Shown: piece after piece, positions 1-38,428 of the stretch
Numbering within the stretch: position 1 is the first letter of the stretch
Layout: each line of letters starts with the position of its first letter
Source: Batkoa obscura
Taxonomy: Eukaryota
Reading direction: 5' to 3'
DNA length: 48,925 nt
NCBI GenBank assembly: GCA_030770535.1
Contig: JASVEC010000115.1
Coordinates: 1-48,925, forward strand
The notes under the pieces: model-generated
What the model saw: the letters and a program-made list of their open reading frames with translations, nothing else
What the model was told of the DNA's origin: nothing
Database searches by the model: none
Position numbers and translations under genes: made by a program

Positions 1-252
1 CTCAAGGCTCTTAATTGAATTATTCCCTAGTATTGTATCTTTAATAAAGCCATCAAGTTTTAATAGTATTTTACATAGGTTTTACAGTAGTATCTTCTAT
101 TTTATTTATTTCATATATTTTATAGCTTATTGGGCACTATTTCTATTAATTTAAGCCCATCTTAGCTACATAAACTAAGGCCTTTCGACTCACGACTAGT
201 TAAGTAGGCTAGAATTGCTTTTAACTCCAATCACTGAGTATCAGATTTTACA
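1..252 (+). repeat. 5' LTR (3' portion only)
   Basis: Aligns with the 3' half of the LTR family (AATAAAGCC polyA signal, CATAAACTAAG, CACTGAGTA..AGATTTTACA end). Confidence 0.9.
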
Positions 253-254
253 TT

Positions 255-268
255 TGGCGCTCATAACT
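255..268 (+). promoter_or_regulatory. putative primer binding site (TGGCGCTCATAACT)
   Basis: TGG-initiated sequence 2 nt after the LTR end, complementary to a tRNA 3' ..GCGCCA; the tRNA is not identified. Confidence 0.7.
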
Positions 269-373
269 AGGAAAGCTCTTGTAACTACTCTAGGTACCCT
301 TCATAATCTTTCCTTTACGGTCCTTACCGCGTAACCATCCCCAAAAACCCTTAACCCCCTTAACTTTCAAACT

Positions 374-3300
374 ATGGTCAATAATAGCTTTATACCCTAT
401 TTTGCTGACTCAAGATATCTTCTTGATAACTGTCAACAATTGTCCATAACTGGATATGACATGGGTAGTAGTAATGAAGAAGAAGTTAGTATTCTCACTC
501 CAGAAATAGATATTGCTGCTCTGAAACGAGCAGCACTGCCTTCACATGTTATAAAATCGGTTGCTACCTATGGAGCTGTTCCTATGGACGTTCTTAGTGG
601 TGATTTTTCTGCTTGGAGACAATATCAAAATAGTGGCTCTAGTACTCAAATCACTTTTCGTGCTCAGTATCAAACGGTACCTACTCTCTCCCACGCTCAA
701 CAATATTTAGTAGAGTTCTTACACAACAAACTCATCCAGATGGTTGGTGAACTCAACCGTCTTTCAACTCACACTAATGAATTGTCTACCTCTTTGAGCT
801 CACTTCTAGGTACAGTTAATAATCTCTCCATGGTTATTAACCAAAACAATGATATAACCACCCTCTTAAATAAATTCCATACTAGTAAGTTAAATGAGTT
901 CGACCAAAGGCTCAAAAATACCATTAGTTATGAAGTTCATAGAGATTTGGTAAAAGAAGTAAGAGACTTCAAGGCTGAATTGCATCAGCTTGATACCAAC
1001 TTACACTCCGAGATAGTTAAGATCTCTGACGAGATCAATATTTTCCTCACTGAGATCAATGAGCATACTGCCGAAAGAATCGCAAATATTAATGGAAAAG
1101 TGAAAACCGCTTTCACAGAACTTCACAGATCGTTGATGACTACATTTAACGAGTACAATCATCGTTTATCTTGTATTGAACAATCCCCTGCGTCTGCATC
1201 AACCAAAGATTCCAGAATCTTGGCTTTAAAACAAGATTTAGCTATTTGTAATCAACAACCGGCTCAACAAGTAACTATCATCAACCAGCTCATCACTTCC
1301 AATAATAGTTTGAAGGAACAAATTAGATTGGATAAAGAGCAATCAGTAGCTGACTGGAACGAAATTTCGCGCAACATACAGAGTACTAAAGAAGAGCTCA
1401 TTCTTCTTCAGACCAAGGTAGCCTCCAATACCAGTCAAATCAAGGCGTTTTCCTGTAATTGTAAGAAGAGGCGTATTGGTGTTTCAGTATCTCGCTCTAG
1501 ACTCTCGAATTATAGAAATATTACAAAATACAAAGTGTATGATCTAAGTGATGGTACTATACAGTCTATCCTTGATACTGAATATCAAATGAACCCCAAG
1601 TGTCGTGATTCTATTTACTCAGTACAATCGGATGATCAGCCAAAAAAAGGAGACTTACCTCAAGTTTCTACATACTTGTCTCGATCGCTTCCCAGAATGA
1701 CTACCGCACCTACTGATGGTATTTACTCCAGAAATCCTGCTATAAGGTCCAATGCTGCGTCAATACGACCTCGTGTACAACCCTACCCTGAGGTTAACCT
1801 AGATAATCCTTTCAAAAATAATAACAAAGACAAGTCACCACATAACGCTTCTCAAATCACTCAACGTGCATTCTATGAACAACCTTTACCTTACTACATA
1901 CAACCTGATCCAATTCCTGCTCAACGCAATTATAGTACATTATATAATAATCATGATGGTCATTGTAGCCATTATGGACCTTCTGGTAACAATCAAAGCT
2001 CGCATAGCTTCTCAACATACCGCCGCGACTATCCAAGAAGCTCCTTACCTATTAATAACAAGTTTAATTTTAATCTCTTATTCAATCCAAGCGAAATTAC
2101 TGCTACCAGCTTTATCAAAGCTCTAGAAGCTTGTCTTGATGCAAACAACTGGTCCTATGAGTGTCGCTCCCAATGCCTCTTAGATCAGCTACAAACAAAA
2201 GAATTTTCCTGGTGCATGACCTTACCTGATGACTTACGTAGTAACTGGAACTCTTTCAAAAAGGCATTTATAGATCATTACGATTTTGATGTAAAAATGG
2301 AAGCAAAAAAAGTAGCCCTTTTATCTTTACGTTTAGACGACGAAAGTAAACTTGAGAATTTCATTACAAACGTAAGAAATCGTGCTAATGCCTTAATTTC
2401 CTGTGAAAAGTTAAGCGTTACAGACCTCCGCCTGGCCTTCCAACGAAACCTTCCAAGTCATATCGCACGTCTTTTTATATATCCTCACCATAATATCATT
2501 AATGTTACACAGATGATAGAAATTTTAGAGCTGTATCTTAGAAGTTCAAAAGGGGAAGTTAGATCCAAAAAACTGTATGCTAATCATATAGATAGCAAAA
2601 CTCTGGACTATCGTATAATAAACTATCGGACTAATAATAAATCAATTGACGTTACTCTCTGCGGATTAGTATCTGTGATTTATCAATATCCAGACATAGC
2701 GTATAGGCAGTCTGGAATCCCCATTATTTCCCCTAAGAACTTATTAATACCGCCTAAATCACAGGTAGTGCTAGATACTAAAATCTTATTATGGGTACCT
2801 AAGGAGTTCCATCTATCTATATACAGTATAGAAGGTGTTTCACGATTAGAGCCTTTAGTTATGCCTGGAGTCTTAGGTGACAATATGAATGAGACTATTA
2901 AGTTATTGCTTGCAAGCATCACTAAAAAAGATATCAATATTTCTAGAGGTCAACAGGTTGGAATCATACATCTAGAAAATAACGCTTTGATCAGTACTTT
3001 CAGTAAATTTGCAACACTAGAAGAATTCCAAATTTATGAAGTCCCTAATGGCCAGACCTCGTTTATCAAAAAAGACACCATTGGACATCTAAATCAAGAT
3101 GAACAACTCCAATTTTATAAATTGCTGGAAGAATATAAAGAGATTTTTGGAACTTCAGAAGAAGATATTGACTGTGCCCGCAACACTAAACATAAAGTAT
3201 ATACGTGCGATCCACTACTTGTCGCAACCAAAGCGTATCATGAATCTCAGTCCGAACTTAGGGCAGAACGAGAAGAAGTCCAAAAACTCCTAAATTTAGG

Positions 3301-4834
3301 CTTAATTATCCCTTTGGATAGTCCATGGGCCTCTCCTCTTATGATTGTTAAGAAAAAGGGCGGAACTAATAGAGTAGTTATGGACTATAGAAAGCTTAAC
3401 AAAGTCACAAAAGGTGTATACCCTCTACCCAGAATAGATGATGCTGTTGACCGCTTACAAGGGGCAAAATATTTTTCGGCAATGGATCTAATCTCAGGAT
3501 ACTGGCAGATAGAAATGGATTCAGAAGACCAAGAAAAGTGCGCTTTGATTACTTCTGAATGGCTATTTCAACTAACTAGGATCCCACAAGGCTTTTCAAA
3601 CACCTCTGCTACATTACAACATCTTATGGATAATACAATAGCCGATCTTAAGCTTTTATGTGTGCTAGTTTACCTAGATGACTTGAATGTGTTTTCGAAA
3701 ACTTTTGTGGATCACCTAGCTCATCTTAAAGCAGTACTCGAACGTCTTCGCCAAGCTAGCCTAAAGTCAGAACTAAAGAAATGTTCATTCTTCCAAACTA
3801 GCCTGGAATTTCTAGGCTATAAGGTCTCTGACAAAGTTTTAGCCCCTATTCCTAATAAATTAGATGAATTAAGAGAACTTCTCTCCCCAACTACACTCAA
3901 GGAGGTACAAGTATTCCTTGGGTTGATGAATTATTATCAAAGATTTATAAAAGATTTCTCGAATTTGGCTATTCCACTGTTCCAACTGTTAAAGAAAGAA
4001 TCCAAGTTTCAATGGGAGAAAGAGCACCAACAAGCGTTTGAAGAACTCCGCGACAAGCTGCTCAATGCTCCAGTTTTAATGTTTCCAAATTTTTCAAAGT
4101 CCTTCTTTCTAAATACTGACGCTAGTCCAACTGCAGTTGGAGGTGTTTTAAGCCAATTAGATGATGATAACTGCGAACATCCAATAGCTTATACCTCTAG
4201 AGCCTTATCGAAACACGAGATGAATTTTACTACGACAGAGAAAGAATGCCTTGCAATTATTCATGCTATAAAGACATTTAGACCGTACATCTATAGCACT
4301 CACTTTACTATTATCACCAACCATGTTTCCTTAAAACGGTTGTATTCGATCACTAATCCTGAAGGGCGTTTAGCTAGGTGGGCTCTAAAACTACAATCGT
4401 ATAGTTTTGATATAGTATATAAACAAGGTAAAGATAATCACAATGCGCATAGGCTTAGAAAGTTATCCAGGATCTGTCTAGCCGCTCTCATAGATGATGA
4501 TCTGTATAACCTATCAGGCGATAAAGATAAGTGGTCGCAACAGCAACCTGAACTCAAACAATGGCTTGAGAAAAACGCTCAGAGTATCATTGTCAAAGGT
4601 AATCCATTGTACAAAAAGATCAAAGGAACATATATCCTATATATTAGACCTTCTTCACAGTTGTCTGTATGTCAAAAGTTCCATAACATGATCTGCGGAC
4701 ATTCAGCCTTCCAAAAAACGTATGATGTCATGAAAGTTTTTTGTTATTGGAAATCAATGATACCGGACTTAAAAGACTTCATAAATAGTTGCGATGTTTG
4801 TAAAAAAAACAACAAAATAGGACAAAAGCAGTAG
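374..4834 (+). CDS. Gypsy Gag-Pol polyprotein (1486 aa): coiled-coil N-terminus, capsid-like domain, dUTPase-like segment, RT, RNase H, integrase Zn finger; truncated before the integrase core
   Basis: SPWASP, DYRKLN, YPLPRIDD, DLISGYWQ, VYLDD (RT); TDAS, TEKECLA, RLARWAL (RNase H); H..GH..C..C (IN Zn finger); WNSFKKAF capsid-like motif. Confidence 0.93.
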   Translation: MVNNSFIPYFADSRYLLDNCQQLSITGYDMGSSNEEEVSILTPEIDIAALKRAALPSHVIKSVATYGAVPMDVLSGDFSAWRQYQNSGSSTQITFRAQYQTVPTLSHAQQYLVEFLHNKLIQMVGELNRLSTHTNELSTSLSSLLGTVNNLSMVINQNNDITTLLNKFHTSKLNEFDQRLKNTISYEVHRDLVKEVRDFKAELHQLDTNLHSEIVKISDEINIFLTEINEHTAERIANINGKVKTAFTELHRSLMTTFNEYNHRLSCIEQSPASASTKDSRILALKQDLAICNQQPAQQVTIINQLITSNNSLKEQIRLDKEQSVADWNEISRNIQSTKEELILLQTKVASNTSQIKAFSCNCKKRRIGVSVSRSRLSNYRNITKYKVYDLSDGTIQSILDTEYQMNPKCRDSIYSVQSDDQPKKGDLPQVSTYLSRSLPRMTTAPTDGIYSRNPAIRSNAASIRPRVQPYPEVNLDNPFKNNNKDKSPHNASQITQRAFYEQPLPYYIQPDPIPAQRNYSTLYNNHDGHCSHYGPSGNNQSSHSFSTYRRDYPRSSLPINNKFNFNLLFNPSEITATSFIKALEACLDANNWSYECRSQCLLDQLQTKEFSWCMTLPDDLRSNWNSFKKAFIDHYDFDVKMEAKKVALLSLRLDDESKLENFITNVRNRANALISCEKLSVTDLRLAFQRNLPSHIARLFIYPHHNIINVTQMIEILELYLRSSKGEVRSKKLYANHIDSKTLDYRIINYRTNNKSIDVTLCGLVSVIYQYPDIAYRQSGIPIISPKNLLIPPKSQVVLDTKILLWVPKEFHLSIYSIEGVSRLEPLVMPGVLGDNMNETIKLLLASITKKDINISRGQQVGIIHLENNALISTFSKFATLEEFQIYEVPNGQTSFIKKDTIGHLNQDEQLQFYKLLEEYKEIFGTSEEDIDCARNTKHKVYTCDPLLVATKAYHESQSELRAEREEVQKLLNLGLIIPLDSPWASPLMIVKKKGGTNRVVMDYRKLNKVTKGVYPLPRIDDAVDRLQGAKYFSAMDLISGYWQIEMDSEDQEKCALITSEWLFQLTRIPQGFSNTSATLQHLMDNTIADLKLLCVLVYLDDLNVFSKTFVDHLAHLKAVLERLRQASLKSELKKCSFFQTSLEFLGYKVSDKVLAPIPNKLDELRELLSPTTLKEVQVFLGLMNYYQRFIKDFSNLAIPLFQLLKKESKFQWEKEHQQAFEELRDKLLNAPVLMFPNFSKSFFLNTDASPTAVGGVLSQLDDDNCEHPIAYTSRALSKHEMNFTTTEKECLAIIHAIKTFRPYIYSTHFTIITNHVSLKRLYSITNPEGRLARWALKLQSYSFDIVYKQGKDNHNAHRLRKLSRICLAALIDDDLYNLSGDKDKWSQQQPELKQWLEKNAQSIIVKGNPLYKKIKGTYILYIRPSSQLSVCQKFHNMICGHSAFQKTYDVMKVFCYWKSMIPDLKDFINSCDVCKKNNKIGQKQ

Positions 4835-5800
4835 CTTGTAAGCTTATTTACCTAAACATGTATTTTACACAGTAAGTATAGATGTTGTAGATCCTATTCG
4901 AGAAGCTTCTTTATTAAGAATAAATAAACATATTGTTGTAGCTGTAGACCGTTTAAACAAGTGGTTTGAAGCTAGAACAACAATAAGCCAGACTTCCTTT
5001 CCCATATCCAAATATACATAAAAAGATATTATTTGTAGATATGGAAGCCCTCAGGTGATGCTTACTGACGATTTTACCAATTTTGTTAATCTAGCTCTCT
5101 CAATTAGCTAGACTAATAGCCACAAAGCATTCTACTGCAACTTCATACCACCTTGGAACTAACGGAATGATAAACCAGTGTGTATACTAAGGAAGTTAGC
5201 TTTCAACGAAGCTAGCTCTTGAAATGTATACCTATATTCTGCCATTTTAGCATATAGACATTCAGTGCATAATATTATCAAAAAATCTCCTTTTGTTATG
5301 CTTTATGAGAAACACCCTGGACTTCCCATATCTTCCACCTCTTTAATCACTAAACAAGGCCAGATGAGCCCTGACATGTATTTGGCTAAACTAACAAAAA
5401 AATTGATGGCTACGCAAGTTGACGCCTTTAGCGCATTAAAAGATTCGAAAATAAAGAGGTATCAACAAGATATGTCTCAACTTCCTAGTCTAGCTATCTT
5501 CAAGATAGGCAATATTATTTATCTGTATCCTTCCTACGATCAATCTAGAAAAAATAAACTAGCACTGGAATGAGACGGATCATATAAAATCATATGTAGA
5601 CACTTATATGATGGTTACTCAGTCAAATATAAAGGAACAAGAGTCATTTATAATTAACCGCGTACCAAGTTTCTCAAATCAGCAATGTGATTCAACGGGT
5701 ATAATTTGTAACTGGCCGAATTGTACTATAACTATTGCGAAAGAATTGAATAAGACTAATTGTTTTGGCTCTCTTATAGGCTCTTGGTAAGCAAACCATA
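4835..5800 (+). pseudogene. disrupted integrase catalytic core and C-terminus
   Basis: Integrase-like fragments across frames (SIDVVDP, IVVAVDRLNKWFEA, RYGSPQVMLTD, YHLGTNG, YRHSVHNIIKKSPF) broken by stops and frameshifts. Confidence 0.85.
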
Positions 5801-5833
5801 AAGATTTACTAAATCAAATCATAGGGTGTGAAA

Positions 5834-6293
5834 TGTGAGATATCGCTTTGTCACCTCCATGATTAATTGCAATACAGCAATCACTTAAGTCATTATGTCC
5901 TCGAGTTTAGAGACAATCAATTCCATGCTCTTAGTTTGATTTGCTATGAGAATTTGTATCTTCGTCCTAAAAAATATTATCTCCATGTTTTGATATCTAT
6001 ACTTGTCGGAATATAAAAGAGACTCTGGAACATAGTAACTCGAGGCTTTTTAACTGAATTATTCCTTGATATCTCCTACATTTAGTAAAGCTATTAAATC
6101 TTCTTGATAATATCTTATATAGATTTTACAGTAATATTATTTATTCTATTTGTCTTACATAGTCTGTAGCCTATTACGCATTATTTTTCATAACTCAAGT
6201 CTATCTTAGCTACATAAACTAAAACCTTTCAACCTATGGCTAGTCAATCAACCAAAAAGTACTTAACTTTAATCACTGAGTACCAATTTCATA
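5834..6293 (+). repeat. 3' LTR of the Gypsy element
   Basis: Starts TGTGAGATATCGCTTTGTCA, ends GAGTACCAATTTCATA (family ends TGTGAAAT..ATTTCACA); TATAAAAG box inside. Confidence 0.92.
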
Positions 6294-7312
6294 GCATTTT
6301 AGGGATTTTTATAATAAAAAGATATTTTAAAATATTAAATAAAATAGAAAAATATTGTCTAATTAATTTCAAAGTTTAAGGTTTTTATTTACAAATATAA
6401 TAAAATCAATAGTTTAATTATTAACAATAAGAAAACAAATATAATTTTAAAAAAAATAAAAAAAATAAAAAATATAAAAAATATAAAAAATATAAAAAAT
6501 ATAAAAAATATAAAAAATATAAAAAATATAAAAAATATAAAAAATATAAAAAATATAAAAAATATAAAAAATATAAAAAATATAGGTATTGTATTTAACT
6601 AAATATGATAAATTATATTATTACCCAGTATCTAATAGATTAAAGATATCTAATGTAATTTTAATTAAAGTTATAAAATTTACAAAACAAGAAAATTATA
6701 AAATTAATTCCAACTTATTTTACAAGAATAAGTGAAAGTTTAAAATTTTTAATATTTACTAAATAAGTAAATAGTTTATTAAGTGATAAAAATTAATTAC
6801 TAAATATTAATATTACTTAATTTATTGATAGTTAAGCTAATAGATGGTTGAAAAGTAAGTAGCTATAATAATAAATAAAAACTATTATTATATTATTTGT
6901 ATTATATAAAAATAACTAATTGTAACTTTGAGGCTAATCACTCCCTCTTATGCAGCTATTTATTAACTTAGTAATATATTAATAATGTAATTATGATATT
7001 AAAACTATTGATGTATTTTATAGCAAATCCATAATATTGAGTATAAAACAGTTAATAGTAAATATCTCTCAATGAAGTTTTATAAGAACACGTATTTATT
7101 GACATATTATAACTTTGATTAATATTAATATATAAGTTATATTAGTAAAGTCCTTGCTAATATGGCAATTTATATTAGATCTAATAAAAATTCTGCTAAC
7201 TTACAACATATCTTATAACAAATAGTTTAAAAGTGCTAAGTACTTTTGTTTTTTAATAAATAGTTTATCTTTATATAGTTCTAAGCAAAGTTCTAAAATA
7301 TAAAATATAAAA
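5841..7312 (+). repeat. left arm of 1472-bp inverted repeat
   Basis: Reverse complement of 9662-11133; only one mismatch noticed by eye, near the outer end. Confidence 0.97.
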
Positions 7313-7403
7313 CTAGGTTTTATTTTAATACTATTTTATTGGTTATCCTATCCAAAATTAAGTTAAAAAATGAATAAAAAATGAAACCAGTTTGGACATC
7401 TCC
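6294..7403 (+). mobile_element. decayed 3' half of a Sola2-family transposon, into which the Gypsy element inserted
   Basis: Aligns with about 32184-33091 of the intact element (from GCATTTT to TIR-like GAAACCAGTTTGGACATCTCC). Confidence 0.8.
6467..6583 (+). repeat. (AAAAAATAT)13 tandem repeat; mirrored at 10391-10507
   Basis: Direct reading of the 9-bp unit. Confidence 0.95.
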
Positions 7404-7906
7404 ACTAACACTAGGTCTCTTAAGTTGTTCAATTTGAGTATTCAAAATTTTATTATAATTAATAAATTATTTAGACCATCAACCTTTTAAGCGAAAAAAA
7501 CACAATTTTTTTAGTTGTACTTTTAAATAACAAAACCTAACCTTTTCTCCTTGGTTTACTTGGCATTAATAAATATCAAACGCTTATTCATATCAAATAT
7601 TTTTTGTTGCTTTTTGAGTTTTAAACTTTGTATATCATTTACAATTCATTTAAAGCGAACAATGATCTATAAAAGACAATCAATCATATTTGGTATTATC
7701 TTAAATAAATTTAAAAAACTTCAGGAGCTCTGGAGGCTTCAATCTCTTTGTTTGATAACTTGATCTTCATATTATCAAAACGGTCGTATGTGTAATATTC
7801 TCAAGATTTTTTTGAAAAAAAGCAACTATTATGTAAACATAAAATATTTTTAATTCTAATAGCTTTATGAAAAGTTATACAAGAATATTAAGCGTTTATT
7901 TACTAA

Positions 7907-8497
7907 TCATTTAAATATAGGCTCCAAGTTGATATCCAGTGTATCATAGAGCTCCATATTTTGTGTAGTAGAATATGGCTTTGGTGAAGGTTTATTCCTT
8001 TTCTTTATATTTTGCCTAGGTTTATATTTATAGTTAGGATATTTTGTCTTATGTATGGATTTCTCGGCTTCAGCCATCTCCAAGTATCTTTGTTTAACCT
8101 CAAAGCCTTCATGTTTCCACATTCTACCAATAATCTGTGATATTTTTTTATTGTCGGCCATTTTGTTTGTACTACTTATCTCCTTATGTTTATCTTTCCT
8201 ATAAAGTATAAATGCATTTGCAGGCCTAGGTATTTTGTCAGTATCATCTGTTTTAGATAATGTTTTGCTTTCGCTTGAGCTATCTTCATCTTTTCTGATA
8301 ATTATCTTTTCTGCAAATGACTTTGAAATTAATAAAGGATAATGACCTTCTGGGATAAAAAAACAATCTTTCTGGTCTAAAGAAAATTCATCTTTCAAAG
8401 GCTCCATTCTGATACCATCGCCATTTTCAATGAGGTAGTCAAACTTACTTTCGTCCAAAAAAAGCAGGTGCTCATTTAACCTTAAAGGGCTATGCAT
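7907..8497 (-). CDS. MATA-type HMG-box transcription factor (SexM/SexP, MAT1-2-1, Ste11, Rox1-like class), single exon
   Basis: KIPRPANAFILYRKDKH..ISQIIGRMWK..YLEMAEAEK..H..KYPNYKYKPR sequence-specific HMG box. Confidence 0.93.
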   Translation of the reverse strand: MHSPLRLNEHLLFLDESKFDYLIENGDGIRMEPLKDEFSLDQKDCFFIPEGHYPLLISKSFAEKIIIRKDEDSSSESKTLSKTDDTDKIPRPANAFILYRKDKHKEISSTNKMADNKKISQIIGRMWKHEGFEVKQRYLEMAEAEKSIHKTKYPNYKYKPRQNIKKRNKPSPKPYSTTQNMELYDTLDINLEPIFK

Positions 8498-8625
8498 TTT
8501 AGTTGTATGTTGATTGTTGGTATAACGTCAAGGTTGATTGGTGGCTAATTATTTTTGATTTATCCTCTTTAGATTCTTTTTCTAATACTTACTCTTTAAA
8601 ATTGAAACAAAAGTAATTAAGCAAC

Positions 8626-9013
8626 ACAGCTATTTGTAGAATAACCTTTGTTACAAAATTTCAAGCTGGTGCTAGCATGAATAATGGAATGTAAATATAA
8701 GGAATATAAGCTATTGAATGCATCATTTGAGTGATTTGTATAAAAATCATATGTTTAAACCCTTTACCGATATAGGTTAAATCTTTTTTAATTTAAATCA
8801 AATTTCCTTAATAATTGTAGGCCATTGTTAAATATACAGCTATTTGTAAAATAACTTTTGCCACAAAATTAAGCTAGTGTTAGCATGAATAATAGAATAT
8901 AAATATAAGGAATATAAGCTATTGAATGCATCACCTGAGTGATTTTTATAGAAATCATATGTTTAAACCCTTTACCAATATAGGTTAAATTTTTTTTAAT
9001 TTAAGTCAAATCT
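8626..9013. repeat. ~210-bp-period tandem duplication upstream of the HMG gene
   Basis: ACAGCTATTTGT..TAGCATGAATAAT..AAACCCTTTACC..TAGGTTAAAT repeated from 8626 and 8836. Confidence 0.9.
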
Positions 9014-9617
9014 TTTTAATTTAAATTAAACCTATTTTAATAAGTTAAATTTAGCCAATGATATTAGACCGTTCTTAAGTAAAGCTTCTTTTGATTTGAG
9101 GAAGATATACAGGATTAAATTTTGTTAGCTAAAAAAATAATAAAAGGGGAATTGATTGACTGGCAAAGGAGTATCCAGGTGTGCAGTAAGTAAAAAATAA
9201 TAGACCAAACAAATATCAGTTGTTTAGTGTTTGATATATATATTCAGGCTATTACAAATCACTCAGTTTTAATAGTAACTCCTTTGAGGATTTAAGGAAC
9301 GGTAGGATATCCCACAACATATATTAATAGATAAAATAACTACTAAAATATAATCCCTATTAAATTTTAAAGAGTTCGATTAGTTATTACAAATAAAATA
9401 AAAATTCTTACTAAGTCCTATAAAGTTTTATTAGTTATGAAATAACATTATGATAAAATATCTATTAAACTCTAAAAGATATTATTAGTTATAACAAATA
9501 AGGGATAAATAAATAGCATATAAGTTAAAAAAAACCTTGTTAGTTATGACAAATAGCAAAAAACTAACTAAAATACATCAAAAAAGAAGCGCTACTGAAT
9601 ATCAAAAGGCATTACAT

Positions 9618-10680
9618 GGGGTGTCGGAATTGATTTGATTTCTTTTATCTAACTTTCAAGATTTTATATTTTATATTTTAGAACTTTGCTTAGAACTATA
9701 TAAAGATAAACTATTTATTAAAAAACAAAAGTACTTAGCACTTTTAAACTATTTGTTATAAGATATGTTGTAAGTTAGCAGAATTTTTATTAGATCTAAT
9801 ATAAATTGCCATATTAGCAAGGACTTTACTAATATAACTTATATATTAATATTAATCAAAGTTATAATATGTCAATAAATACGTGTTCTTATAAAACTTC
9901 ATTGAGAGATATTTACTATTAACTGTTTTATACTCAATATTATGGATTTGCTATAAAATACATCAATAGTTTTAATATCATAATTACATTATTAATATAT
10001 TACTAAGTTAATAAATAGCTGCATAAGAGGGAGTGATTAGCCTCAAAGTTACAATTAGTTATTTTTATATAATACAAATAATATAATAATAGTTTTTATT
10101 TATTATTATAGCTACTTACTTTTCAACCATCTATTAGCTTAACTATCAATAAATTAAGTAATATTAATATTTAGTAATTAATTTTTATCACTTAATAAAC
10201 TATTTACTTATTTAGTAAATATTAAAAATTTTAAACTTTCACTTATTCTTGTAAAATAAGTTGGAATTAATTTTATAATTTTCTTGTTTTGTAAATTTTA
10301 TAACTTTAATTAAAATTACATTAGATATCTTTAATCTATTAGATACTGGGTAATAATATAATTTATCATATTTAGTTAAATACAATACCTATATTTTTTA
10401 TATTTTTTATATTTTTTATATTTTTTATATTTTTTATATTTTTTATATTTTTTATATTTTTTATATTTTTTATATTTTTTATATTTTTTATATTTTTTAT
10501 ATTTTTTATTTTTTTTATTTTTTTTAAAATTATATTTGTTTTCTTATTGTTAATAATTAAACTATTGATTTTATTATATTTGTAAATAAAAACCTTAAAC
10601 TTTGAAATTAATTAGACAATATTTTTCTATTTTATTTAATATTTTAAAATATCTTTTTATTATAAAAATCCCTAAAATGC
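9618..10680 (-). mobile_element. decayed Sola2 3' half, inverted copy, TIR at 9618
   Basis: GGGGTGTCGGAATTGATTTG resembles the family TIR; continues into the right IR arm. Confidence 0.75.
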
Positions 10681-11133
10681 TATGAAATTGGTACTCAGTG
10701 ATTAAAGTTAAGTACTTTTTGGTTGATTGACTAGCCATAGGTTGAAAGGTTTTAGTTTATGTAGCTAAGATAGACTTGAGTTATGAAAAATAATGCGTAA
10801 TAGGCTACAGACTATGTAAGACAAATAGAATAAATAATATTACTGTAAAATCTATATAAGATATTATCAAGAAGATTTAATAGCTTTACTAAATGTAGGA
10901 GATATCAAGGAATAATTCAGTTAAAAAGCCTCGAGTTACTATGTTCCAGAGTCTCTTTTATATTCCGACAAGTATAGATATCAAAACATGGAGATAATAT
11001 TTTTTAGGACGAAGATACAAATTCTCATAGCAAATCAAACTAAGAGCATGGAATTGATTGTCTCTAAACTCGAGGACATAATGACTTAAGTGATTGCTGT
11101 ATTGCAATTAATCATGGAGGTGACAAGGCGATA
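9662..11133 (-). repeat. right arm of 1472-bp inverted repeat (includes LTR copy 10681-11133 lacking the first 7 bp)
   Basis: Reverse complement of 5841-7312, same length and same number of 9-mer repeats. Confidence 0.97.
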
Positions 11134-11895
11134 CTTTGCAAAGATTTATAAATTTAAAAACTTAAAGTTTAAACTAATTTTTAAGTAACTTCTAAAACCA
11201 ATTTAGATATCCCTATATAGTATTAAGTTAAAGATTTAATGTTCAATTAGTCAAAAACCTAAACAGTTGTTAGTAAAATACAAATCCAATAGATTTCAAA
11301 TATTTTATGCTGTATTTGTTTTAATAAATATAATATAACAGCAAAAAAATATGAAATAAAGCTAAAAAATAAATATTTTATAACAAATTAAATTAAAATA
11401 AAGCTTTTAATGAAAACAACCAAACGTTTTTATAAACTTAACTATAAAATATAAAATATAAAACGTAAAATAATTAAGTCTTTCGTTTAACTTTTACATA
11501 CAGTTAATTAGCTATAAGTTATAATGTTTGTAAACTATGTAGGTTTAAATCATCAATATATTTATTACTAGTAAAATCTTATTAATTTGAGTTTTGACAT
11601 TAATTTATATATCTGATTAAAGATATAAGTTATTATAACTATTTTTTATTATTGTTATATTTTAACTAAATAAAATAATTTGCATAAATATAGTAATAAA
11701 TTTTAATAAATAAGCTTATAAAATTATGAAACCTTATTTTTTATATTTACATCCATTTTTAATCTATTTTATTTTAGCTTTTACTCATGTTTCATAATGA
11801 AATTGTCAAACGTAATAAATTTATTTACTATTTAATTAAACCAAAAAGTTCAAATATATCATATTAGTATATTTATAATTTAAAGTTTAATATAT

Positions 11896-11994
11896 GGGGA
11901 TGTTCTTTTTGATTTCATTACCTTTTCCATTTTTTAAGCGCTATTTGAGCGGAAAATTTGTTAGTAAAATTCTTAAACACAAAAATTCATCCCC
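11896..11994 (+). mobile_element. ~100-bp MITE (GGGGATGT..ATCCCC) with ATAT target-site duplication; degenerate copy at about 12052-12142
   Basis: Terminal inverted repeats, 4-bp TSD, many homologues in the window. Confidence 0.85.
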
Positions 11995-13069
11995 ATATAT
12001 TAAAGTTAATAATGATAAATATATTTAATGATTTAAAAGCTCTTAAACTTAAGGGTGATTCTTTTTGTTATCATCCCTTTTTCTATTTTTAAGCGCTATT
12101 TGAGTGGAAAAAATATTAGTAAAATTCTTCAAAAAATACACCGTCTATCTATGCTTTAATGGATTTTCTCAAAAAGGAAGATTAATTACTTTAGAAACTA
12201 TCCTGTAAATGATTTTTTTAAGATTTTAACTTTAAATCACAAAACTTCATTAGTAGGCATTTTAAATGAGATTACCTTTAAAAATAATAACCTGTAGCAT
12301 CTTTGTTCGAGGACTTTAATTTTCCTCAACTTATTTTATAAAAAGTTAGAAACTAAAAAATAAAAAGACAACCCCACTTTAATATTTGGATAGTAACTAT
12401 GTAGTTTTAGGTTAAACTTAGAAATTTTTCTATTAAAAGAAACATCAAAGTTTTTTGTTTTTTTATTGATTTTCCGAATTTGGTGTTTAAACAAATGAAC
12501 CTTTTCAACTATAATTAGATATGAATCAAAAAACATCATAGTAATCAATAATCTTTTTGTTTATAAAAGATATTTCGTTTCGAAAAAGATTGATCCCAAA
12601 GATATTGAATTGTTTTTATATATGCATGTAAAGGTAAATGTATATATTACAATATTTTTTAATAAAATACTTATTCACTAAAAAAAAGTTACGTTAAATA
12701 AGCATTATCCCAGAACAAAATTATTGCTAACAAGTTATATGGCAAAACCCTGGATTTGCCAAAATTTAAAATACATCAGCCATAGGGGGATGATAGTGAT
12801 AAAAATAGATGAATATTATACAAGAATAAAAAACTTGATACTAATGATTAGTTTTATTCAGTAAAACTAGGATCTAAATATAAAATCAATGTTATAAGAA
12901 CAAAACAAAGAAAGAGATATTTATTATGAAATAATAATACATTGAAATACTACGCCATCTATTTAAAATTTAAAAAGAAAAGCACAAAGAATATATATTT
13001 GAAAAAATAAGATTGAGAAGTATATAAATAAGTGCTGTATCGCAAACCCAAGTTAGGTAGAATTTCAAA

Positions 13070-13876
13070 ATGACAACGGCTAAAGGTATAGGCTTGTATT
13101 CCTTACTAGTCTTTGGAGCTTCCATTGGATCTGTCATAGGAGTTTCTTTATTCGTTAATGTAATCATTATATTGGTTTTAATCATTATTAACTATATTTA
13201 GTTTTGCGCCAAATCGCCAACTTCAAACATGATCATTACTAAAAAGAAAGATGAAATTCATTTGGAATTAGAAGCTGATAACCCTAGAGCTTTTAGTATT
13301 TGTTTAAAGCGTATTGAACTTTACAGGGTGATTCGCGACTGTAGTCCTAACAGTAAATGGATAGAACCTTTATCCCAAAAATGTTCAAAAAACTGCTATT
13401 CAGAGGAAATATCTAATACTAGTCAATCTATAGACTCCTATAAATTCAGTGATTTGGATAAAAGTAGCTTAAATATATGTTTTTCTGGCGAGGATGAAAG
13501 CAGCATATATGAAGCAATAGAATTTATAAAGCAAGATGGCTTAAGCAAATCTGTTTTTAATAAAGACGGAAATAATGTACACAAAGCAACGTGTATTGTA
13601 GATCAAGTTCTAACATCCTAGAGCCTTGAAAAAGCTGGTTTAGAAGCTTTTAAATCCAAACTAGATGAAAATGTCAACTATAATTTTAAAATTGATAAAG
13701 CGAATATGATTAAAGAGGAAAATAATTCTTTAAGTTTAGATCATCCTGAACTCAATGAAGGAATTAGCTACCTAATCTCAGATCATTCAAGATATAGCGA
13801 TATCGATAGTATCAATAAGAATGAACCTGTGTCACCTTATACAGGTGAAAATGATGAAAATGAAGTTGATAATTGA
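13070..13876 (+). CDS. hypothetical secreted or membrane-anchored protein; intron 13160-13201; in-frame TAG at 13619-13621
   Basis: Exon 1 MTTAKGIGLYSLLVFGASIGSVIGVSLFVN splices in frame (GT..AG) to ORF 13229; the frame stays open 84 codons past the TAG to TGA at 13876. Confidence 0.65.
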
Positions 13877-14746: not shown

Positions 14747-15240
14747 CCAATTAAACCAGTTTTTTAAAATTGAATACAAAAAGGTTATTTCAGTTTAAAC
14801 CATCTGAATAGGTGTTTGTGATTTTATTTTGATTTAAAATCATTTAATTAGGGATAAAAGTGATTCTATGATGCAAAATCTTTTACCTTGTCATTAAGAC
14901 TCAAAATATTGATTAGTAAAGCTAATGTTATATTATTAGATATCCTTGAAATACTGTAATTTTGAAAACTTTTTAACTAGCAGTAACATGCTGCATTAGC
15001 AAATGCTACTTTTTACAAAGTAAACACTACCTTATTTTATGAGCTATAGCCTTATGTAGTTAAATTTGACCCAAAACCGAGGTTTTTTTGCTATATTTCC
15101 TTTTCTAATATTATTTTTCATATGTTTTTGTTTGAATTTACTTTAAAAAATTATTAATAGCTTTATCTATTAAAACATCATAAAATAGGGATATATTTTT
15201 TTGTTTAAGAATTTTACTAACAATCTTTCTGCTTAAATAG

Positions 15241-15703
15241 TGTGAAATCTGGTACTCATGGTTTGGAGTCAAGAACAGCTATTTCCGGGTTGACTACACT
15301 ATAAGTCGAAAGGTCTTAGTTTATGTGACTAAGATAGACTTGAATTATGAAGAATAGCACGTAATAGATTACAAGCTATATAAGACAAATAGAATAGACA
15401 ATACTAATGCAGAATCTACGTAAAATACTATTAAGTAAACTTAGTGGCTTTATTAAGTCTAGGAGATATCAAGGAATAATTCAATTAAAAGCCTCAAACT
15501 ACTATACTCTGTAAACTCTTTTATACTCTGAAAAGTATAAATATCAAAATGAGAGGATAATATTCTTTTGGATGGAGCTAGAAATTCTCATAGCAAATCA
15601 AACTAAGAACGTGGGATTGATTTTTTCTGAACTCAAGAACACAGCAGCTTAGGCGATTGTTATGCTATAATTAACCATAGGACTGACAAAGCGGTATTTC
15701 ACA
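15241..15703 (-). mobile_element. solo LTR (463 bp), no matching TSD
   Basis: Reverse complement of the family LTR; flanks ATAG / GTTG; truncates a MITE (15188-15240) on one side and a Sola2 remnant on the other. Confidence 0.93.
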
Positions 15704-16203: not shown

Positions 16204-16666
16204 TGTGAAATATCGCTTTGTCAGTCCTATGGTTAATTATAGCATAACAATCGCCTAAGCTGCTGTGTTCTTGAGTTCAGAAAAAATCAATCCCACGTTC
16301 TTAGTTTGATTTGCTATGAGAATTTCTAGCTCCATCCCAAAGAATATTATCCTCTCATTTTGATATTTATACTTTTCAGAGTATAAAAGAGTTTACAGAG
16401 TATAGTAGTTTGAGGCTTTTAATTGAATTATTCCTTGATATCTCCTAGACTTAATAAAGCCACTAAGTTTACTTAATAGTATTTTACGTAGATTCTGCAT
16501 TAGTATTGTCTATTCTATTTGTCTTATATAGCTTGTAATCTATTACGTGCTATTCTTCATAATTCAAGTCTATCTTAGTCACATAAACTAAGACCTTTCG
16601 ACTTATAGTGTAGTCAACCCGGAAATAGCTGTTCTTGACTCCAAACCATGAGTACCAGATTTCACA
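16204..16666 (+). mobile_element. solo LTR (463 bp), TSD ATGT
   Basis: Complete ends, ATGT on both sides. Confidence 0.95.
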
Positions 16667-16695
16667 ATGTTTAAGTCAAATTAGTAATAGGACAT

Positions 16696-16897
16696 GGGGA
16701 TGTTTTTTTGGCTTTGTTACTTTTTGCATTTTTTAAGCACTATTTGCGTGGAAAAACTGTTAGTAAAATTCTTAAATACAAAAATGCATCCCCATATGGT
16801 GACGTATTTTGTGTTTAAGAATTTTTCCAAGAATTTTTCCACTCTAAATAACGTTTTAAAAAATGCAAAAAGTAATGAAACCAAAAAAAACACCCTC
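16696..16897. mobile_element. two MITE copies tail-to-tail (16696-16793 +, 16798-16897 -)
   Basis: Family sequence in both orientations separated by ATAT. Confidence 0.85.
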
Positions 16898-17424
16898 ATA
16901 TCTTTATTTTAAAAGAATGCTAATATTCTATGATAATTTTTAGAGGACAGCAAATCAATTGAGGCTAACTATTCTTTACTTAAAATTAACTCTTAGTATC
17001 TTAAATTGAAATAAGAAATATGCTTTAAAGCTACTTTACTTACCTTAGGAAGCAAATACAGCTTTTAATACAATATTGAAGCTTGAACAGAGGCTTTTAG
17101 TATGGTACTTTATTGTATTGTACATTCTTTTACTGCTTCTATAATTAAAATATAGAATAATTCTCTATAAGTTTGATGATATTAGTATAAAAGCTACAGT
17201 ATTAGAGTAGTTTTTTATGAATGCTTGAAAAACTAAAAGATCAAATGAGGTAATTGATTATACATTTGTAAATCTCGATAAATTAATTAAATCAAAACAA
17301 AATAATTGAACAGCAGTTTAGAGCATTTGCTAGTCTATTTTATGTTCCTAAAGGCGTAATCAAAATAAAAAAGGATACACATAACTTTGACCAGTCTTAT
17401 ATTTATAACTTATTTATCTAAAAT

Positions 17425-18648
17425 TCAAAGCGACTTGATTATTTGGTCTAACATTACTTGAACTGCACGATCCACATCAGCTGCATTATTACTACTAGCA
17501 GTAGAAGATAGTTCTGAGCTTATGTCAATGGTCAACATTACATCATCTATAATTTTGAGTCATTACTCAAATAGAAAAATAAAATGCTTACCAGAACCTC
17601 TTCTCCAAGCTTTAACCTTAAATCTACTTGTTAATCTTTTATAAGTTTTCATCACCGCTGATTGGAGGGTAGGATCTAAACAGAAAGCAATGAAATTAAG
17701 CGACCCAGCTAGTGATGATCCCATTATAGACCAGTTTTTTAGATATATGGGACGTGTTCCATTTATATCAAAGTACGTCTGTGAAACAATAACACCAGTA
17801 TGGGTGAATATCATAATACATGGGTATAATACTCTAAATAAAGTTTTAATGCTAAATCAAAAACACATAATGCTCACATCCTTAACCCCAGCTGTCTAAC
17901 ACTACTAATTGCTTTACTTGATGTTTCTATTGCTCTGAAATATCTATGTTTTTTAATAGCATCTAAGTTACTATTTAACTTGATTATAACTAAAATAACC
18001 ACGACAAGGAGGTAAATCATTACAACTATATAGGTGAGCTGAAATACTAATAAATCAAAAAATTTTGCATCGCTTGCATTAGCAATAACAATATAACATC
18101 CTTGATCTTTAGCATACCCGAGCTTACCAAGAGCTATTCATAAAATGTAAATAAATTTATAATGCACTAATTATATACCTAATGGGATCGTTGCACATAT
18201 AAATGCTACTGTCAAAGGTATAACCCAATATAGGGCCTCGACTTTCTTGGTGGTATTTTTCTCTTGTAGAAATGTTCGTTGTAAGTTTATTCCAACACAA
18301 GCGTTGAAAAAAGCATACAATAATGGGAAAAAGAAAAACTGCCATCCAATAAATGTACACATCGCACTCGGTGACTTGGCATATGGTCTTATCCATAAGT
18401 GTGTGGTATGCAGCCAGATATCATAGCATGATATGACTGTTTGTAAGCGCAAAGAAACACGGTTAACTAACTTCCAGTCATAGATACCTAGATTGAATGT
18501 TTAATATCCATCATATTATTTTTTTCTAAAAGACAATACTAAGGCATATCATTGTTAGTATAACTAGGAATGCAAAGAACGCAGACGTTTTTGATGTTAT
18601 TGGGGTATAGTATAAGTAGATCTGATTAGTTTCTGGCCGTCCGCTCAT
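17425..18648 (-). CDS. 7-transmembrane GPCR-like receptor (Git3/cAMP-receptor-like), paralogue A, 5 exons
   Basis: Spliced reading MSGRPETNQ..YDWKLVNRVSLRLQ..C..INLQRTFL..YW..GCY..LYPCIM..LNFIAFCLDPT..DQIIKSL*; seven hydrophobic segments, ECL1/ECL2 cysteines. Confidence 0.85.
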
Positions 18649-20606
18649 TTTTTTAAGTTAATGAGACCCAAGAAGTTCACTTATTTAGAATAATTTTTTA
18701 TACTTTATGCTTGAGTGCTTTATTTATCTGAACAAGCTATACATACGCTATATTATATTTTTTAATCTGTAAACAAGTTAAATGTAAAATATCCTGTTTT
18801 TATGTTACTCTTTGGTAAAATAAGAAAACTTGTTGAACTTGGCATGAGTTTATTGTAATGAATACACGTTTTATAAGATTGGTTACTACATAATATAAAG
18901 GAATAGAAAATCACGGGTAAGTATTTTACATCACCTAAACCAGAACTGAGCTCGGATAATTTAAAGTTGCATTCTAATATACTGTAATGGACTATATTAA
19001 TAAATAGTAAATATTTACTAGTATATGCTTGTAGAATCCATTTTGATTTTTGAACTTCAAATCATTTGCATATCATGTTAGAAGACGTATTTGTTTATAA
19101 AATACCACTAGTTTATAAAGTAAATCTTAAAGCATTAAAAAATACACAAGATTCTATTTTTGTTCATCAATTTTCATCAATAGGTATAAAAATTATAACA
19201 TCAAAAATTACTGGCTGCAAAATAATATTCTCAAATACTTTAGAAAGTTTTGAACCTGAATAAAAATGTTTTATCAATATAAAAGTATAATGAGCTTTGG
19301 TGATTAAGTTGAATCTCGACATCTTTTTTATTAGCATTACGGAGTCCAAGAGACTAGTAGGATGTAGATTCACCATATTATTAGTTGTTTGATATAAGAA
19401 GTAGAAGCGCGCTATAGAACTGCTATATGAGGTTAAATTCATATAAACGTATTCTTATTTAGAACCGATAATTAAAGGTGTAAAATAGATATTTCATTTT
19501 TAAGTTTCCTTAAACTAGTTTGTATTAATTCAAGAATATCAATCATATTATATATATTTTCTGTTATGTTCGCATTGCCTTTTAAAAAAGTAAATTCAAC
19601 AAACAGGCTTCTATCGCATTTTTTAAAGACAAATAAGTAGCCAAAATCATATTATTTAAAAAAACGTTATACCTATATTGTATCCTTTTGTTCTAATTCA
19701 CAAAATTTTCATTAGAAAATATAAAACATGCTGTTACTTTTTGGAACTATAATAGATGTTAGCTTAACGTAAATAGTACCCATGTATTAGTATTTTATTT
19801 AGTATAGCATGAGTGCTTACTGTATAGTTATAATAAGTATATTTTCATGCTATTTGAGTTTTTTACTTAATCCTCAAAAAAATATTAGAAAGACAGGTAT
19901 GGACTATAACATCATTGCTAAAGCATTTAAATATGCCAATTTAAAAGCTATTACTGGTTGATTTTAGATATGAGTTGGATATTTTCAATTCTATATTCAA
20001 TTAATTTAATCATTGTTACTATTTTTATTTTTAAATTCACCAAATGCAAAATTAGAAATGCTCAATCCACGTCTAAAACAATTTGATAGTATCCCTTAAA
20101 AATACAATTATGCTTAAATTATGTAAAGGTAAATTCAAAAATTAAAATTCTTTAAACGCCAAGGCAATTAAAAATGAGTGTATATGATACGAGAAAGAAC
20201 AATTATTTAAATTAAGGGTTTTTGATTTTAAAATTCTAATACAAGACTTTATTAATCGTACCCTTTTAAGTCCTCTAACTTAGGGTTGGTTTTTTTACAG
20301 AAGAAGGTTCTTGATAAAAGAAATATTTTATAAATTAAAAATATAGAACAGCACTATATAACTTTCTAATTAACTCTCAAACTGATGAAAATTTTATTCT
20401 GGAGTCATTAACTATTCAATGAATGATTAAGTTGATATTAAACTAGTATTGTGATTAAATTTGACAAATATAGTAAAAAAGGATTTTTGTTGAACATTTA
20501 AATTCATTACCAAAGAGAGTGGCACTTCATTAACTGTTTATTTAGAAAATAAAGTTATAAATAGAACCAAAATTACACTTAACCTTTAAATTTAATATCT
20601 GAAAAA

Positions 20607-21822
20607 ATGAGCGGACGGCCAGAAACTAATCAGATCTACTTATACTATACCCCAATAACATCAAAAACGTCTGCGTTCTTTGCATTCCTAGTTATACTAA
20701 CAATGATATGCCTTAGTATTGTCTTTTAGAAAAAAATAATATGATGGATATTAAACATTCAATCTAGGTATCTATGACTGGAAGTTAGTTAACCGTGTTT
20801 CTTTGCGCTTACAAACAGTCATATCATGCTATGATATCTGGCTGCATACCACACACTTATGGATAAGACCATATGCCAAGTCACCGAGTGCGATGTGTAC
20901 ATTTATTGGATGGCAGTTTTTCTTTTTCCCATTATTGTATGCTTTTTTCAACGCTTGTGTTGGAATAAACTTACAACGAACATTTCTTCATAATAAGGCT
21001 GTTACTAAATGGATAGAAATTGCTTATTGGGCTATATCTTTGACAGTAGCATTTATATGTGCAACGATCCCATTAGGTATATAATTAGTGCATTATAAAT
21101 TTATTTACATTTTATGAATAGCTCTTGGTAAGCTCGGGTATGCTAAAGATCAAGGATGTTATATTGTTATTGCTAATGCAAGCGATGCAAAATTTTTTGA
21201 TTTATTAGTATTTCAGCTCACCTATATAGTTGTAATGGTTTACCTCCTTATTGTAGTTATTTTAGTACTGCTAAGGTTGTCAAAAAACATCAATACCATC
21301 CAAAATCAAGGTTTTTCTACTGGTTCTGATGCTTCTGTAAAAGCTGTAAAATATGTAAAACAATTAGGCTATAGAATGTAAACATTGTAAAAAAAATTAA
21401 ACTTTTGATTAAAACTTTTTTAGCATTTTGTACCCAGCTATTATGATATTCACCCATACTGGTGTTGTTGTTTCACAGACGTACTTTGATATAAATGGAA
21501 CACGTCCCATATATCTAAAAAACTGGTCTATAATGGGATCATCACTAGCTGGGTCGCTTAATTTCATTGCTTTCTGTTTAGACCCTACGATTCATGAAGC
21601 CTTTAAATCACTTTATTATAGATTTGTATTAAAGAAAGATTTGAACGCTGATAAGGATCATAACGAAGGTAACTATGATACCAAATTTTAGTAATATATA
21701 GTAATTTAAATTTTCAAGGAATTTATCTTAGCGGTGGGATTGACAAAAATAGTACAAACCATGAAGATGGAAATTTCAATAATGAAGACACTGCTCTAAA
21801 AAAATTTATTAGGACTTTATAA
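20607..21822 (+). CDS. 7-transmembrane GPCR-like receptor, paralogue B, 5 exons (introns about 20716-20767, 21077-21121, 21378-21423, 21669-21718)
   Basis: GT-AG splicing yields a continuous 7TM ORF ending ..ALKKFIRTL*; largely identical to paralogue A. Confidence 0.87.
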
Positions 21823-28723: not shown

Positions 28724-29678
28724 ATGACTTTATCAACTATCCCAAACAATCTTAAGAGAGTAGCTATTGCTGGTGGCACTGGAGCCCTTGGTCAGAACCT
28801 TACGGAGGAATTTTTGAAAATTGAGGGGATTAAATTAAAAGTATTGACTAGAAAAAGTACTGGTGAAGTGAGTAATCCACAACTAAAAGAGAAGTTTATT
28901 AAACGTGGTGCTGAAGTTGTTGAGGTTGATTATAATAACCAAGATGAATTAAACGCTGCGTTAAAAGAAATTGATGTAGTAGTGTCAGCTCTAAGTAGTC
29001 TTGATTTTGTAAAGATCAATTTAGTTTTGCTTAACGCAGCAGTTAAAAATAATGTCAATTTATTTATACCTTCTGAGTTCTTTAGTAAATTAGAGGGGTA
29101 CTTTTGTTTAACTTTATTTTACTTCTAGTTTTACTAACTCTACCATTAGAACCAACAATCCATTCACTGCCCCAAAAGCTGAAATTAGAAAACACCTTGA
29201 GAAATCTGGTTTAAATTACATTTACTATAACTGTGGCTTTTTCTATGAGCATATAACTAGCGAGCTTTTCGGTATTGATGTTATTAACAATAAAGCCAAA
29301 ATTGTAGGTTCTGGAAACACAAAGCTCAATATAACTCGTATTAGAGATGTTGCTAGCTTTATTGCACAAACCTATCATTTCCCTGAAGTCAAGAATGCCC
29401 ACGTCAATATATCTTCTCAAGTCACAACCATGAACGAAATTGTAAAACAAATAGGCGAAGTTGGCCAAAAGCCTTTAGAGATTGAGTATATTGATTTGAA
29501 AGAAATCGAAAAATTGATTGTCGAAAAAGCTGAAGATATTTACTATCTCTTGTTTGCGCATTGTGGGAGGGATATCGAGCTTGGAAATGTTTATATTGAA
29601 AAGGATTCAAACTATTTGCTTCCTGGGTTTAAGTTTGAGTCTTTAAAGGAGTATATTAGACAAACATATTTTAATTAG
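28724..29678 (+). CDS. NmrA-like / isoflavone reductase-like NAD(P)-binding protein; intron 29098-29149
   Basis: VAIAGGTGALG Rossmann motif, FIPSEF, K..IRKHLEKSGLNY..CGFFYE; intron with TACTAAC branch point. Confidence 0.92.
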
Positions 29679-38331: not shown

Positions 38332-38428
38332 GTGGCTGTTTTTTTTAGCTTCATTACTTTTTCCAGCTTTTAAACAGTATTGAGCGGAAAATTTGTTAGT
38401 AAAATTCTTAACACAAAAATATACCCTC
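38332..38428 (+). mobile_element. MITE copy
   Basis: Family core GAGCGGAAAATTTGTTAGTAAAATTCTTAA; ATAT flanks. Confidence 0.7.

Follow-up and report, generated by a model that had tools for sequence, protein, structure and literature searches.

Mouse Sry sits between long repeats, and in several fungi mating-type or sporulation genes lie in or between inverted repeats. Here we examine an arrangement of this kind in Batkoa obscura, in a stretch of 48,925 nucleotides (nt) of contig JASVEC010000115.1 that is called the window throughout. A MATA-class HMG-box gene on the minus strand (7907–8497) is enclosed by the two arms of an inverted repeat, the left on the plus strand at 5841–7312 and the right on the minus strand at 9662–11133. 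Our best reading, which we hold to be probable by a modest degree, is that an Mc-like HMG gene resides in a transposon-derived repeat maintained by gene conversion and is likely held down by antisense RNA. Such a locus would flip passively if it flips at all, and it would likely be controlled by a spliced antisense RNA and not by orientation.

The closest published case, as far as the excerpted account (PMC9731477) describes it, is a flip/flop region on Saccharomyces chromosome XIV, where arms of 4 kb, composed of sporulation genes, enclose a 24-kb stretch of 15 genes that is proven to occur in both orientations. The repeats there are homogenised within strains while strains diverge, and inversion is a by-product, not a programmed switch, as proposed here. 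The B. obscura locus differs from it in that its arms consist of transposon debris and enclose a single gene. In the FF1 systems of Ogataea, Pachysolen and Ascoidea, the parts of PMC6692504 available place MATa and MATalpha at the two ends of a segment of at least 8 kb, which usually has a centromere or telomere close to one end. The resemblance lies in one inverted repeat around a mating-type-like gene and in an arm that appears as a double-depth contig, whereas here one HMG gene occupies the centre, the arms are symmetrical and the spacer holds no second mating-type set.

A segment of a few kilobases with a MATA-HMG gene between inverted repeats is also described for Sclerotinia sclerotiorum, where, in the available text of PMC3574095, 250-bp repeats are part of MAT1-1-1 and inversion truncates that gene at each meiosis; no gene or exon was seen crossing an arm in the present locus. 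The matMc genes of the Taphrinomycotina (Schizosaccharomyces, Pneumocystis and Neolecta) are similar to the enclosed gene in size, in their C-terminal HMG box and in the motif F-(I/V)-P-x-G-x-x-P. Here, however, neither a partner cassette nor another mating-type gene was found in the window, the motif also occurs in Basidiobolus and Glomeromycota proteins, and a tree of HMG boxes gives no supported clade with Mc. Finally, the sexM/sexP genes of Mucorales, likened here by their description in the portions available of PMC3000332 and PMC7490403, are likewise single HMG-box genes in early-diverging fungi. The B. obscura locus differs from these in having no triose-phosphate transporter or RNA helicase match in the window and in having alleles that are only about 4–5% apart.

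The inverted repeat and the make-up of its arms

The arms are 1,472 nt each and identical, as reverse complements, at 1471 of 1472 positions; the sole mismatch is at 5847, and 2349 nt of spacer lie between them. An earlier note on this DNA had reported equal-length arms with a single mismatch, and its coordinates, lengths and spacer size were all reproduced. The near-perfect repeat that it considered able in principle to recombine is thus real.

The spacer sequence is present in 11 public runs, and contigs of eight of these (X1–X8) were compared with the window. X1, X2, X3 and X4 are DNA runs, for which the junction check covered the inner junctions using short-read contigs, none of them spanning an arm. 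Contigs of X1 and X2 cross both inner junctions and extend at least 39 nt into the arm, and those of X3 and X4 stop after exactly 30 nt of arm sequence at either junction, below the 31-letter bridging rule that we applied; a reach of 30 nt matches the overlap expected at a repeat branch. Depth was compared between single contigs, because summed depth gives no copy number, following reasoning used for yeast repeats (PMC6692504, in part). Among the contigs listed, arm and spacer depths are 870–961 versus 462–485 in X1, 37–43 versus 22–24 in X2 and 84 versus 43–47 in X3. No arm piece is among the contigs listed for X4, and X7 is represented by only one 464-nt, low-depth contig. With inner-junction contigs in four DNA runs and arms at roughly twice the spacer depth in X1–X3, the view that the repeat is no product of assembly collapse is upheld.

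The outer 460 bp of the arm is a long terminal repeat (LTR). The LTR family to which it belongs has the ends TGTGAAAT...ATTTCACA, beginning with TG and finishing with CA, and is present in about ten copies in the window, one of them a partial copy before the open reading frame (ORF) of a Gypsy-type retrotransposon. Target duplications of 4 bp (CCAA, ATGT and ATTA) accompany three of the six full-length copies outside the arms. The Gypsy element itself (1–6293, plus strand) is old and broken after its pol ORF at 374–4834, which carries reverse transcriptase, RNase H and integrase domains (Pfam). Its partial 5′ LTR (1–252, plus strand) is followed by TGGCGC, which we take to be the primer-binding site, and its 3′ LTR (5834–6293, plus strand) constitutes the outer part of the left arm. 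The corresponding copy in the right arm occupies 10681–11140 on the minus strand, and the first seven bases of this copy (11134–11140) differ from the left LTR by transitions. The arm LTR has 10 private states in common with the Gypsy 5′ LTR (bootstrap 100) and at most two with any of seven other LTRs. Because of these ten states, the arm LTR is, as judged from sequence, the 3′ LTR of the adjacent Gypsy element and the right arm likely a copy of the left, with the left arm as the likely donor. The 5′ and 3′ LTRs of the element are only 74.7% alike. A weak dUTPase match also precedes the reverse transcriptase in the Gypsy polyprotein (residues 781–863; E value 0.001, under the Pfam cut-off).

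The inner 1,000 bp of the arm matches the last 130 codons and the 3′ end of a DNA transposon. An intact 2.5-kb copy of this element outside the locus, at 30627–33091 (plus strand), was used for comparison only; it has GGGG ends with AATT on both sides and a 567-aa ORF at 30937–32640. The inner part of the left arm lies in a decayed C-terminal part and 3′ end (6317–7403, plus strand), which includes an insertion of about 50 bp at 7313–7363 and a terminal repeat at 7384–7403. The right arm lies within a second copy (9618–11214, minus strand), whose 5′ end is at 11214 and 3′ end at 9618, with flanks ATAT/ATGT. A 9-bp microsatellite is expanded in the left arm at 6450–6585 (plus strand) and mirrored at about 10389–10524. 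The transposon part of the arm is strongly decayed: of 190 positions that are C:G in the intact copy, 104 are T:A here, with a peak at CpG (13 of 16). Mutation resembling repeat-induced point mutation is discussed as a possibility for this order in the accessible text of PMC11105155, which does not mention HMG genes. Many relatives of the arm sequence exist elsewhere in the window, a point that the earlier note had missed.

We tentatively assign the transposon to Sola2 from the sequence of its ends. Elements of this group are described in PMC3627910, seen in part, as having short terminal repeats and a 4-bp AWWT target duplication; short terminal repeats are present here, and the AATT duplication at 30627–33091 fits AWWT. 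In contrast, the transposase has no Pfam match (Pfam has no Sola profile), and its Atlas neighbours are unnamed clusters or DUF7869. The closest named relative of a window transposase comes from Neoconidiobolus thromboides (82%); judged by this one protein, the host is likely a member of the same entomophthoralean group, and thus likely a zygomycete that kills insects. Sola2 was seen once in a fungal survey, by the portion of PMC5751038 available, and the Zoopagomycota Sola2 family may be new if the assignment holds. Gypsy LTRs repeatedly adjoin Sola2-like pieces in the window (15704, 26923, 27824, 37068, 6293 and 11141), a pattern that suggests either targeted insertion into the transposon or shuffling through LTR recombination.

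The HMG gene and its antisense RNA

The HMG ORF is a single exon encoding 196 aa, with a Pfam HMG_box match of E value 1.9e-16 and an N-terminal motif F-I-P-x-G-x-x-P-x-L. A tandem duplication of 187 nt (89% identity) lies upstream of its ATG, at 8626–9020. The product has a single sequence-specific HMG box that is closest to fungal MATA_HMG, and no other spacer frame of at least 62 codons has a Pfam match, so that the gene was rightly described before as a MATA-class factor and the lone recognisable gene in the spacer. Relatives of the HMG box are at most 55% identical. In a tree of 254 HMG domains, the nearest nodes have support of 0.60–0.76 and exclude Mc, and the gene is unplaced.

More information comes from the N-terminal motif, which lies outside the box and is common to the Mc proteins of Schizosaccharomyces, Pneumocystis and Neolecta. 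Against a profile built only from the N-termini of 11 Mc-type proteins of Taphrinomycotina it scores 12.5 bits, a value that none of 1,000 shuffles reaches (top score 4.5 bits), and the tested Kickxellomycotina proteins and one MAT1-2-1 score below 2.1 bits. The motif is also found in two Basidiobolus paralogues and in many Glomeromycota MATA-HMG proteins. Over 139 aa, identity to Schizosaccharomyces pombe Mc is 38%. These features place the gene in a subgroup that has true mating-type genes among its members, which is no proof of role. A role in sexual development is plausible, and we would place it just short of probable. A word-based protein search with the HMG ORF gave no match among 75 candidates, and a metagenome scan returned six loci with 41–50% identity, in the HMG box only.

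The ORF is less diverged than the stretch downstream of it (16/392 versus 26/174 sites, P 2e-5). In that stretch (7411–7584), 25 of the 26 differences that the second allele of X6 shows in 174 nt are transitions, and divergence is far above that of the ORF. This excess may be hypermutation spreading from the transposon end.

The suggestion that this is a sex or mating-type-like locus is supported in one point, a gene that falls in the Mc-containing subgroup. It gains nothing from the HMG-box tree, which does not place the gene, from the neighbourhood or from the small distance between alleles. In Mucorales, tptA and rnhA flank the sex genes (PMC3000332 and PMC7490403, in part), and none of tptA, rnhA or a second MAT gene was found by Pfam in the window frames scanned, where short exons could escape. 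These scans used 10 + 10 + 39 queries, which represent most of the 64 stop-free frames of at least 62 codons beyond 5800; frames overlapping known ORFs and microsatellite frames were left out, and the sequence to the left of the Gypsy element lies beyond the window. No idiomorph was found in the eight runs, all of which carry the same gene or part of it; the runs were retrieved with this sequence, and strains with another idiomorph would escape. Second alleles are present in X2, X4, X6 and X8, about 4–5% apart in the ORF and, in X4, up to about 10% elsewhere in the spacer. A candidate idiomorph in X4, which has one contig over the HMG box, was rejected as likely bubble removal, the second allele in X2, X6 and X8 being only about 4–5% apart. 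For X2 and X4, both two-allele runs, the assemblies are also larger, at 40 and 47 million letters against 25–29 million, which fits genome-wide heterozygosity or mixed strains.

Transcription of the opposite strand is indicated by one RNA-like run. Three runs with long contigs (X5, X6 and X8) are treated as RNA; their contigs are unstranded and their RNA status is guessed, no run being recorded as RNA. In X5, one contig of 1361 nt has a depth of 619, against 2–6 in the rest of the spacer. It corresponds to a spliced, non-coding antisense RNA on the plus strand (7425–8920) with exons at 7425–7785 and 7921–8920, whose spliced length equals that of the contig. The 135-nt intron (7786–7920) reads GTATGT...TACTAAT...TAG and contains the HMG stop codon; the skip has GT-AG boundaries on the plus strand only, and the minus strand offers no canonical reading. 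The longest plus-strand ATG ORF of this RNA encodes 49 aa. The transcript spans the whole HMG ORF and the upstream region, and is the only RNA form in X5.

The start of the contig and the end of the intron are two of only five plus-strand sites with a branch sequence and AG in the 2349 spacer positions, and position 7425 is likely a splice acceptor by this sequence context. Because X5 has no comparable depth in 6620–7424, the antisense RNA likely starts further left, before 6620. Strong donor-like sites outside the repeat are present at 4838, 4872 and 5787. In X6, which comes from another study, an unspliced 718-nt contig from a diverged allele runs through the HMG stop codon. No back-splice indicative of circular RNA is among the joints listed, and no GT follows 8920.

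Antisense transcripts that dominate over a gene in some samples are described at Letharia MAT1-1-1 (bioRxiv 10.1101/2020.12.18.423428, in part) and, in yeast, for IME4, which is repressed by the antisense RNA RME2 (PMC9680235, in part). Antisense transcription of the B. obscura locus would, in the same way as RME2 for IME4, keep the HMG gene off in some conditions. The present case differs from both in that the antisense RNA likely starts in transposon DNA, and repression is proposed here by analogy.

Origin of the arms and competing explanations

Outside the identical tract, at either end, the left and right sequences still show homology but have diverged, and on the inner side the limit of identity coincides with the insertion of about 50 bp on the left. 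Read from the sequence, this anatomy is that of a conversion tract between older relics and not of a purpose-built repeat. In the proposed series of events, a long conversion tract would have begun in LTR homology, stopped at the 50-bp insertion near the terminal repeat and copied the left LTR–transposon block into a second, inverted transposon copy. Later exchange would then pass new mutations to both arms.

The arms are likely kept identical by gene conversion. The Gypsy LTR pair has diverged and the block is heavily decayed, yet the arms differ at one site. X1 differs from the window at 13/2257 sites in two long spacer contigs; at this rate, about 8.5 differences between the arms are expected if no exchange occurs, and one is seen (Poisson P 0.002). 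Furthermore, the arm contigs of X1, whose depth is about double, depart from the window at three sites over 539 nt. The arms thus differ at 1/1472 sites within the window compared with 3/539 between the window and X1, a comparison that involves one assembly and, on the X1 side, contig depth. The inner branch lies at 7313 in the window, X3 and X4, whereas in X1 and X2 identity ends 21 nt short of this, at 7292. Homogenisation has also affected two further inverted pairs lying within 11 kb, namely an LTR pair at 99.6% identity and a head-to-head gene pair with patches of 55–100%. It is thus a frequent feature of this region and no peculiarity of the HMG locus.

Several points weigh against conversion-maintained arms with an antisense-controlled gene. 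Proximity and inversion have not homogenised every pair: inverted LTRs 37 bp apart are 94.5% alike, and inverted transposon relics about 0.5 kb and about 5 kb apart are 69% and 85% alike. The window assembly was possibly polished towards identical arms, and the Logan contigs pop single-base bubbles, which leaves depth as the sole indication of shared X1 arm alleles; the X2 depths are ambiguous. Five of the nine listed ORF variants are synonymous (P 0.14), a sign of weak purifying selection. The antisense splice appears in one of the three RNA-like runs (X5, and not X6 or X8, which lack joints), and the unspliced X6 contig derives from a diverged allele, so that allele and condition are confounded.

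The alternative origins of the repeat must be set against this record. That one arm was written twice during assembly is extremely improbable and already largely refuted, since independent runs contain the two inner junctions as well as arm contigs at double depth, even if some assemblers inflate repeats at flip/flop loci to a 1-nt difference (PMC6692504, in part) and the outer junctions (5840/5841 and 11133/11134) fell outside the junction check. A more serious proposal is that the left block was duplicated once and recently, without later exchange between the arms. Identity would then reflect youth or partly polishing, the HMG gene would be an ordinary paralogue and the antisense RNA would be functionless transposon read-through. 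Consistent with this, the direction of copying is clear, other young LTRs 12.7 kb apart are 98.2% alike and have their own target duplications, and the motif recurs in the Basidiobolus paralogues and Glomeromycota proteins. However, the duplication predates the strain split, because all four DNA runs carry both inner junctions though the strains differ by about 0.6% in the spacer, and the differences from the window in the X1 arm contigs occur at about twofold depth; we regard a single duplication as unlikely, without dismissing it. It is far less probable that the HMG gene was moved here as cargo of a composite transposon with Sola2-like ends. An outward-facing terminal repeat at 11195–11214 and the lack of a conserved housekeeping gene adjoining the HMG gene would suit such an element. 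On the other hand, the ends nearest the gene face inward, as in two independent copies, the flanks of the right copy (ATAT/ATGT) nearly match each other, and the spacer is at single depth in X1 and X3; the far left end lies beyond the window. A Pack-element reading was rejected on the same inward orientation of the ends beside the gene.

Whether inversion would matter depends on what it changes. The earlier note had envisaged a switch in which the promoter faces either silenced Gypsy or genic chromatin, and a programmed flip/flop of this type is very unlikely. Identical arms, a size near the 2-kb repeats of some FF1 yeasts (PMC6692504, in part) and an Mc-like gene speak for it. The geometry speaks against it, since the ATG is central in the spacer between identical arms. 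Inversion maps the ATG from 8497 to 8477, a displacement of 20 bp, and shifts the upstream region by 0.6–1.2 kb; the two arms consist of one and the same decayed transposon DNA, and the surroundings of the HMG gene would be unchanged out to about 1.5 kb past the spacer. Nor is the right side clearly genic, as had been thought, because it starts with a transposon end, followed by a short repeat family, one unnamed ORF and then LTRs. Moreover, only one HMG gene lies inside, whereas FF1 systems are described as carrying both mating types (PMC6692504, in part). The one route by which an orientation switch could work is read-through from the Gypsy body: antisense RNA that starts there and is spliced into 7425 would be removed by inversion, and the HMG gene would come on. 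Position 7425 does follow a branch site and AG, the donor-like sites lie outside the repeat, the gap in X5 depth puts any upstream exon further left, unspliced RNA occurs in another study (X6), and homogenised repeats accompany recurrent inversion in Saccharomyces (PMC9731477, in part). Against this, no upstream exon was seen, and such an exon could lie in the arm LTR, which is the same on both sides; an antisense start in that LTR would make orientation irrelevant. No second orientation was seen in the short-read contigs, no recombinase or site is evident, and the Gypsy element is old and broken. We consider this switch improbable. Slightly less probable still is its fullest form, the first Zoopagomycota sex-regulator switch made from transposon debris, in which Gypsy read-through antisense RNA would keep the gene off and arm recombination would turn it on for zygospores.

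Surroundings and significance

Beyond the locus, an unnamed reading frame without a Pfam match lies to the right of the repeat (13070–13873, plus strand; stop at 13619–13621). Further along are ordinary genes recognised by Pfam: a MATE transporter (24547–26234), an NmrA-like protein (28724–29675), a zinc-binding dehydrogenase (33319–34392), a Zn2Cys6 factor (39771–41444) and an oxysterol-binding protein (42418–43734). Searches for tRNAs and Rfam families gave no match in the window, and four window ORFs have no exact-sequence match in the protein collection.

The homogenised LTR pair is located at 15240–15703 and 16204–16667; the two inverted LTRs are 500 bp apart and 99.6% identical, and a matching target duplication is present at one only. 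The head-to-head genes (17566–18653 and 20602–21688) are duplicated, multi-exon and predicted to encode a membrane protein, and their patchy identity of 55–100% makes them likely a mosaic of conversion tracts. A pheromone-receptor reading of this pair at 17.6–21.7 kb was rejected, as six exon-sized frames gave no Pfam match. A second family of short repeats, bounded by GGGGATG...CATCCCC and with some members forming small palindromes, is likely similar to miniature inverted-repeat transposable elements. It occurs at 11860–12140, 16690–16910, 22380–22600, 30330–30460, 37690–37810, 38326–38448, 41850–41973 and 47540–47660.

Mating genetics in Zoopagomycota was still poorly understood according to the accessible part of a 2023 review (PMC10386755). 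Zygospores are formed in the entomophthoralean family of the Neoconidiobolus group (PMC9409958, in part), and no report of an HMG sex locus in Entomophthorales was found in the open-licence literature. On present evidence the B. obscura repeat is a candidate locus, for which neither a switch nor a sexual role is demonstrated. An Mc-like gene with sample-dependent antisense RNA is nonetheless a concrete and testable candidate for a part in Zoopagomycota mating. More generally, the locus illustrates how a host gene can come to be framed by a perfect inverted repeat through nested transposon relics and gene conversion, and such repeats are raw material from which flip/flop systems could arise.

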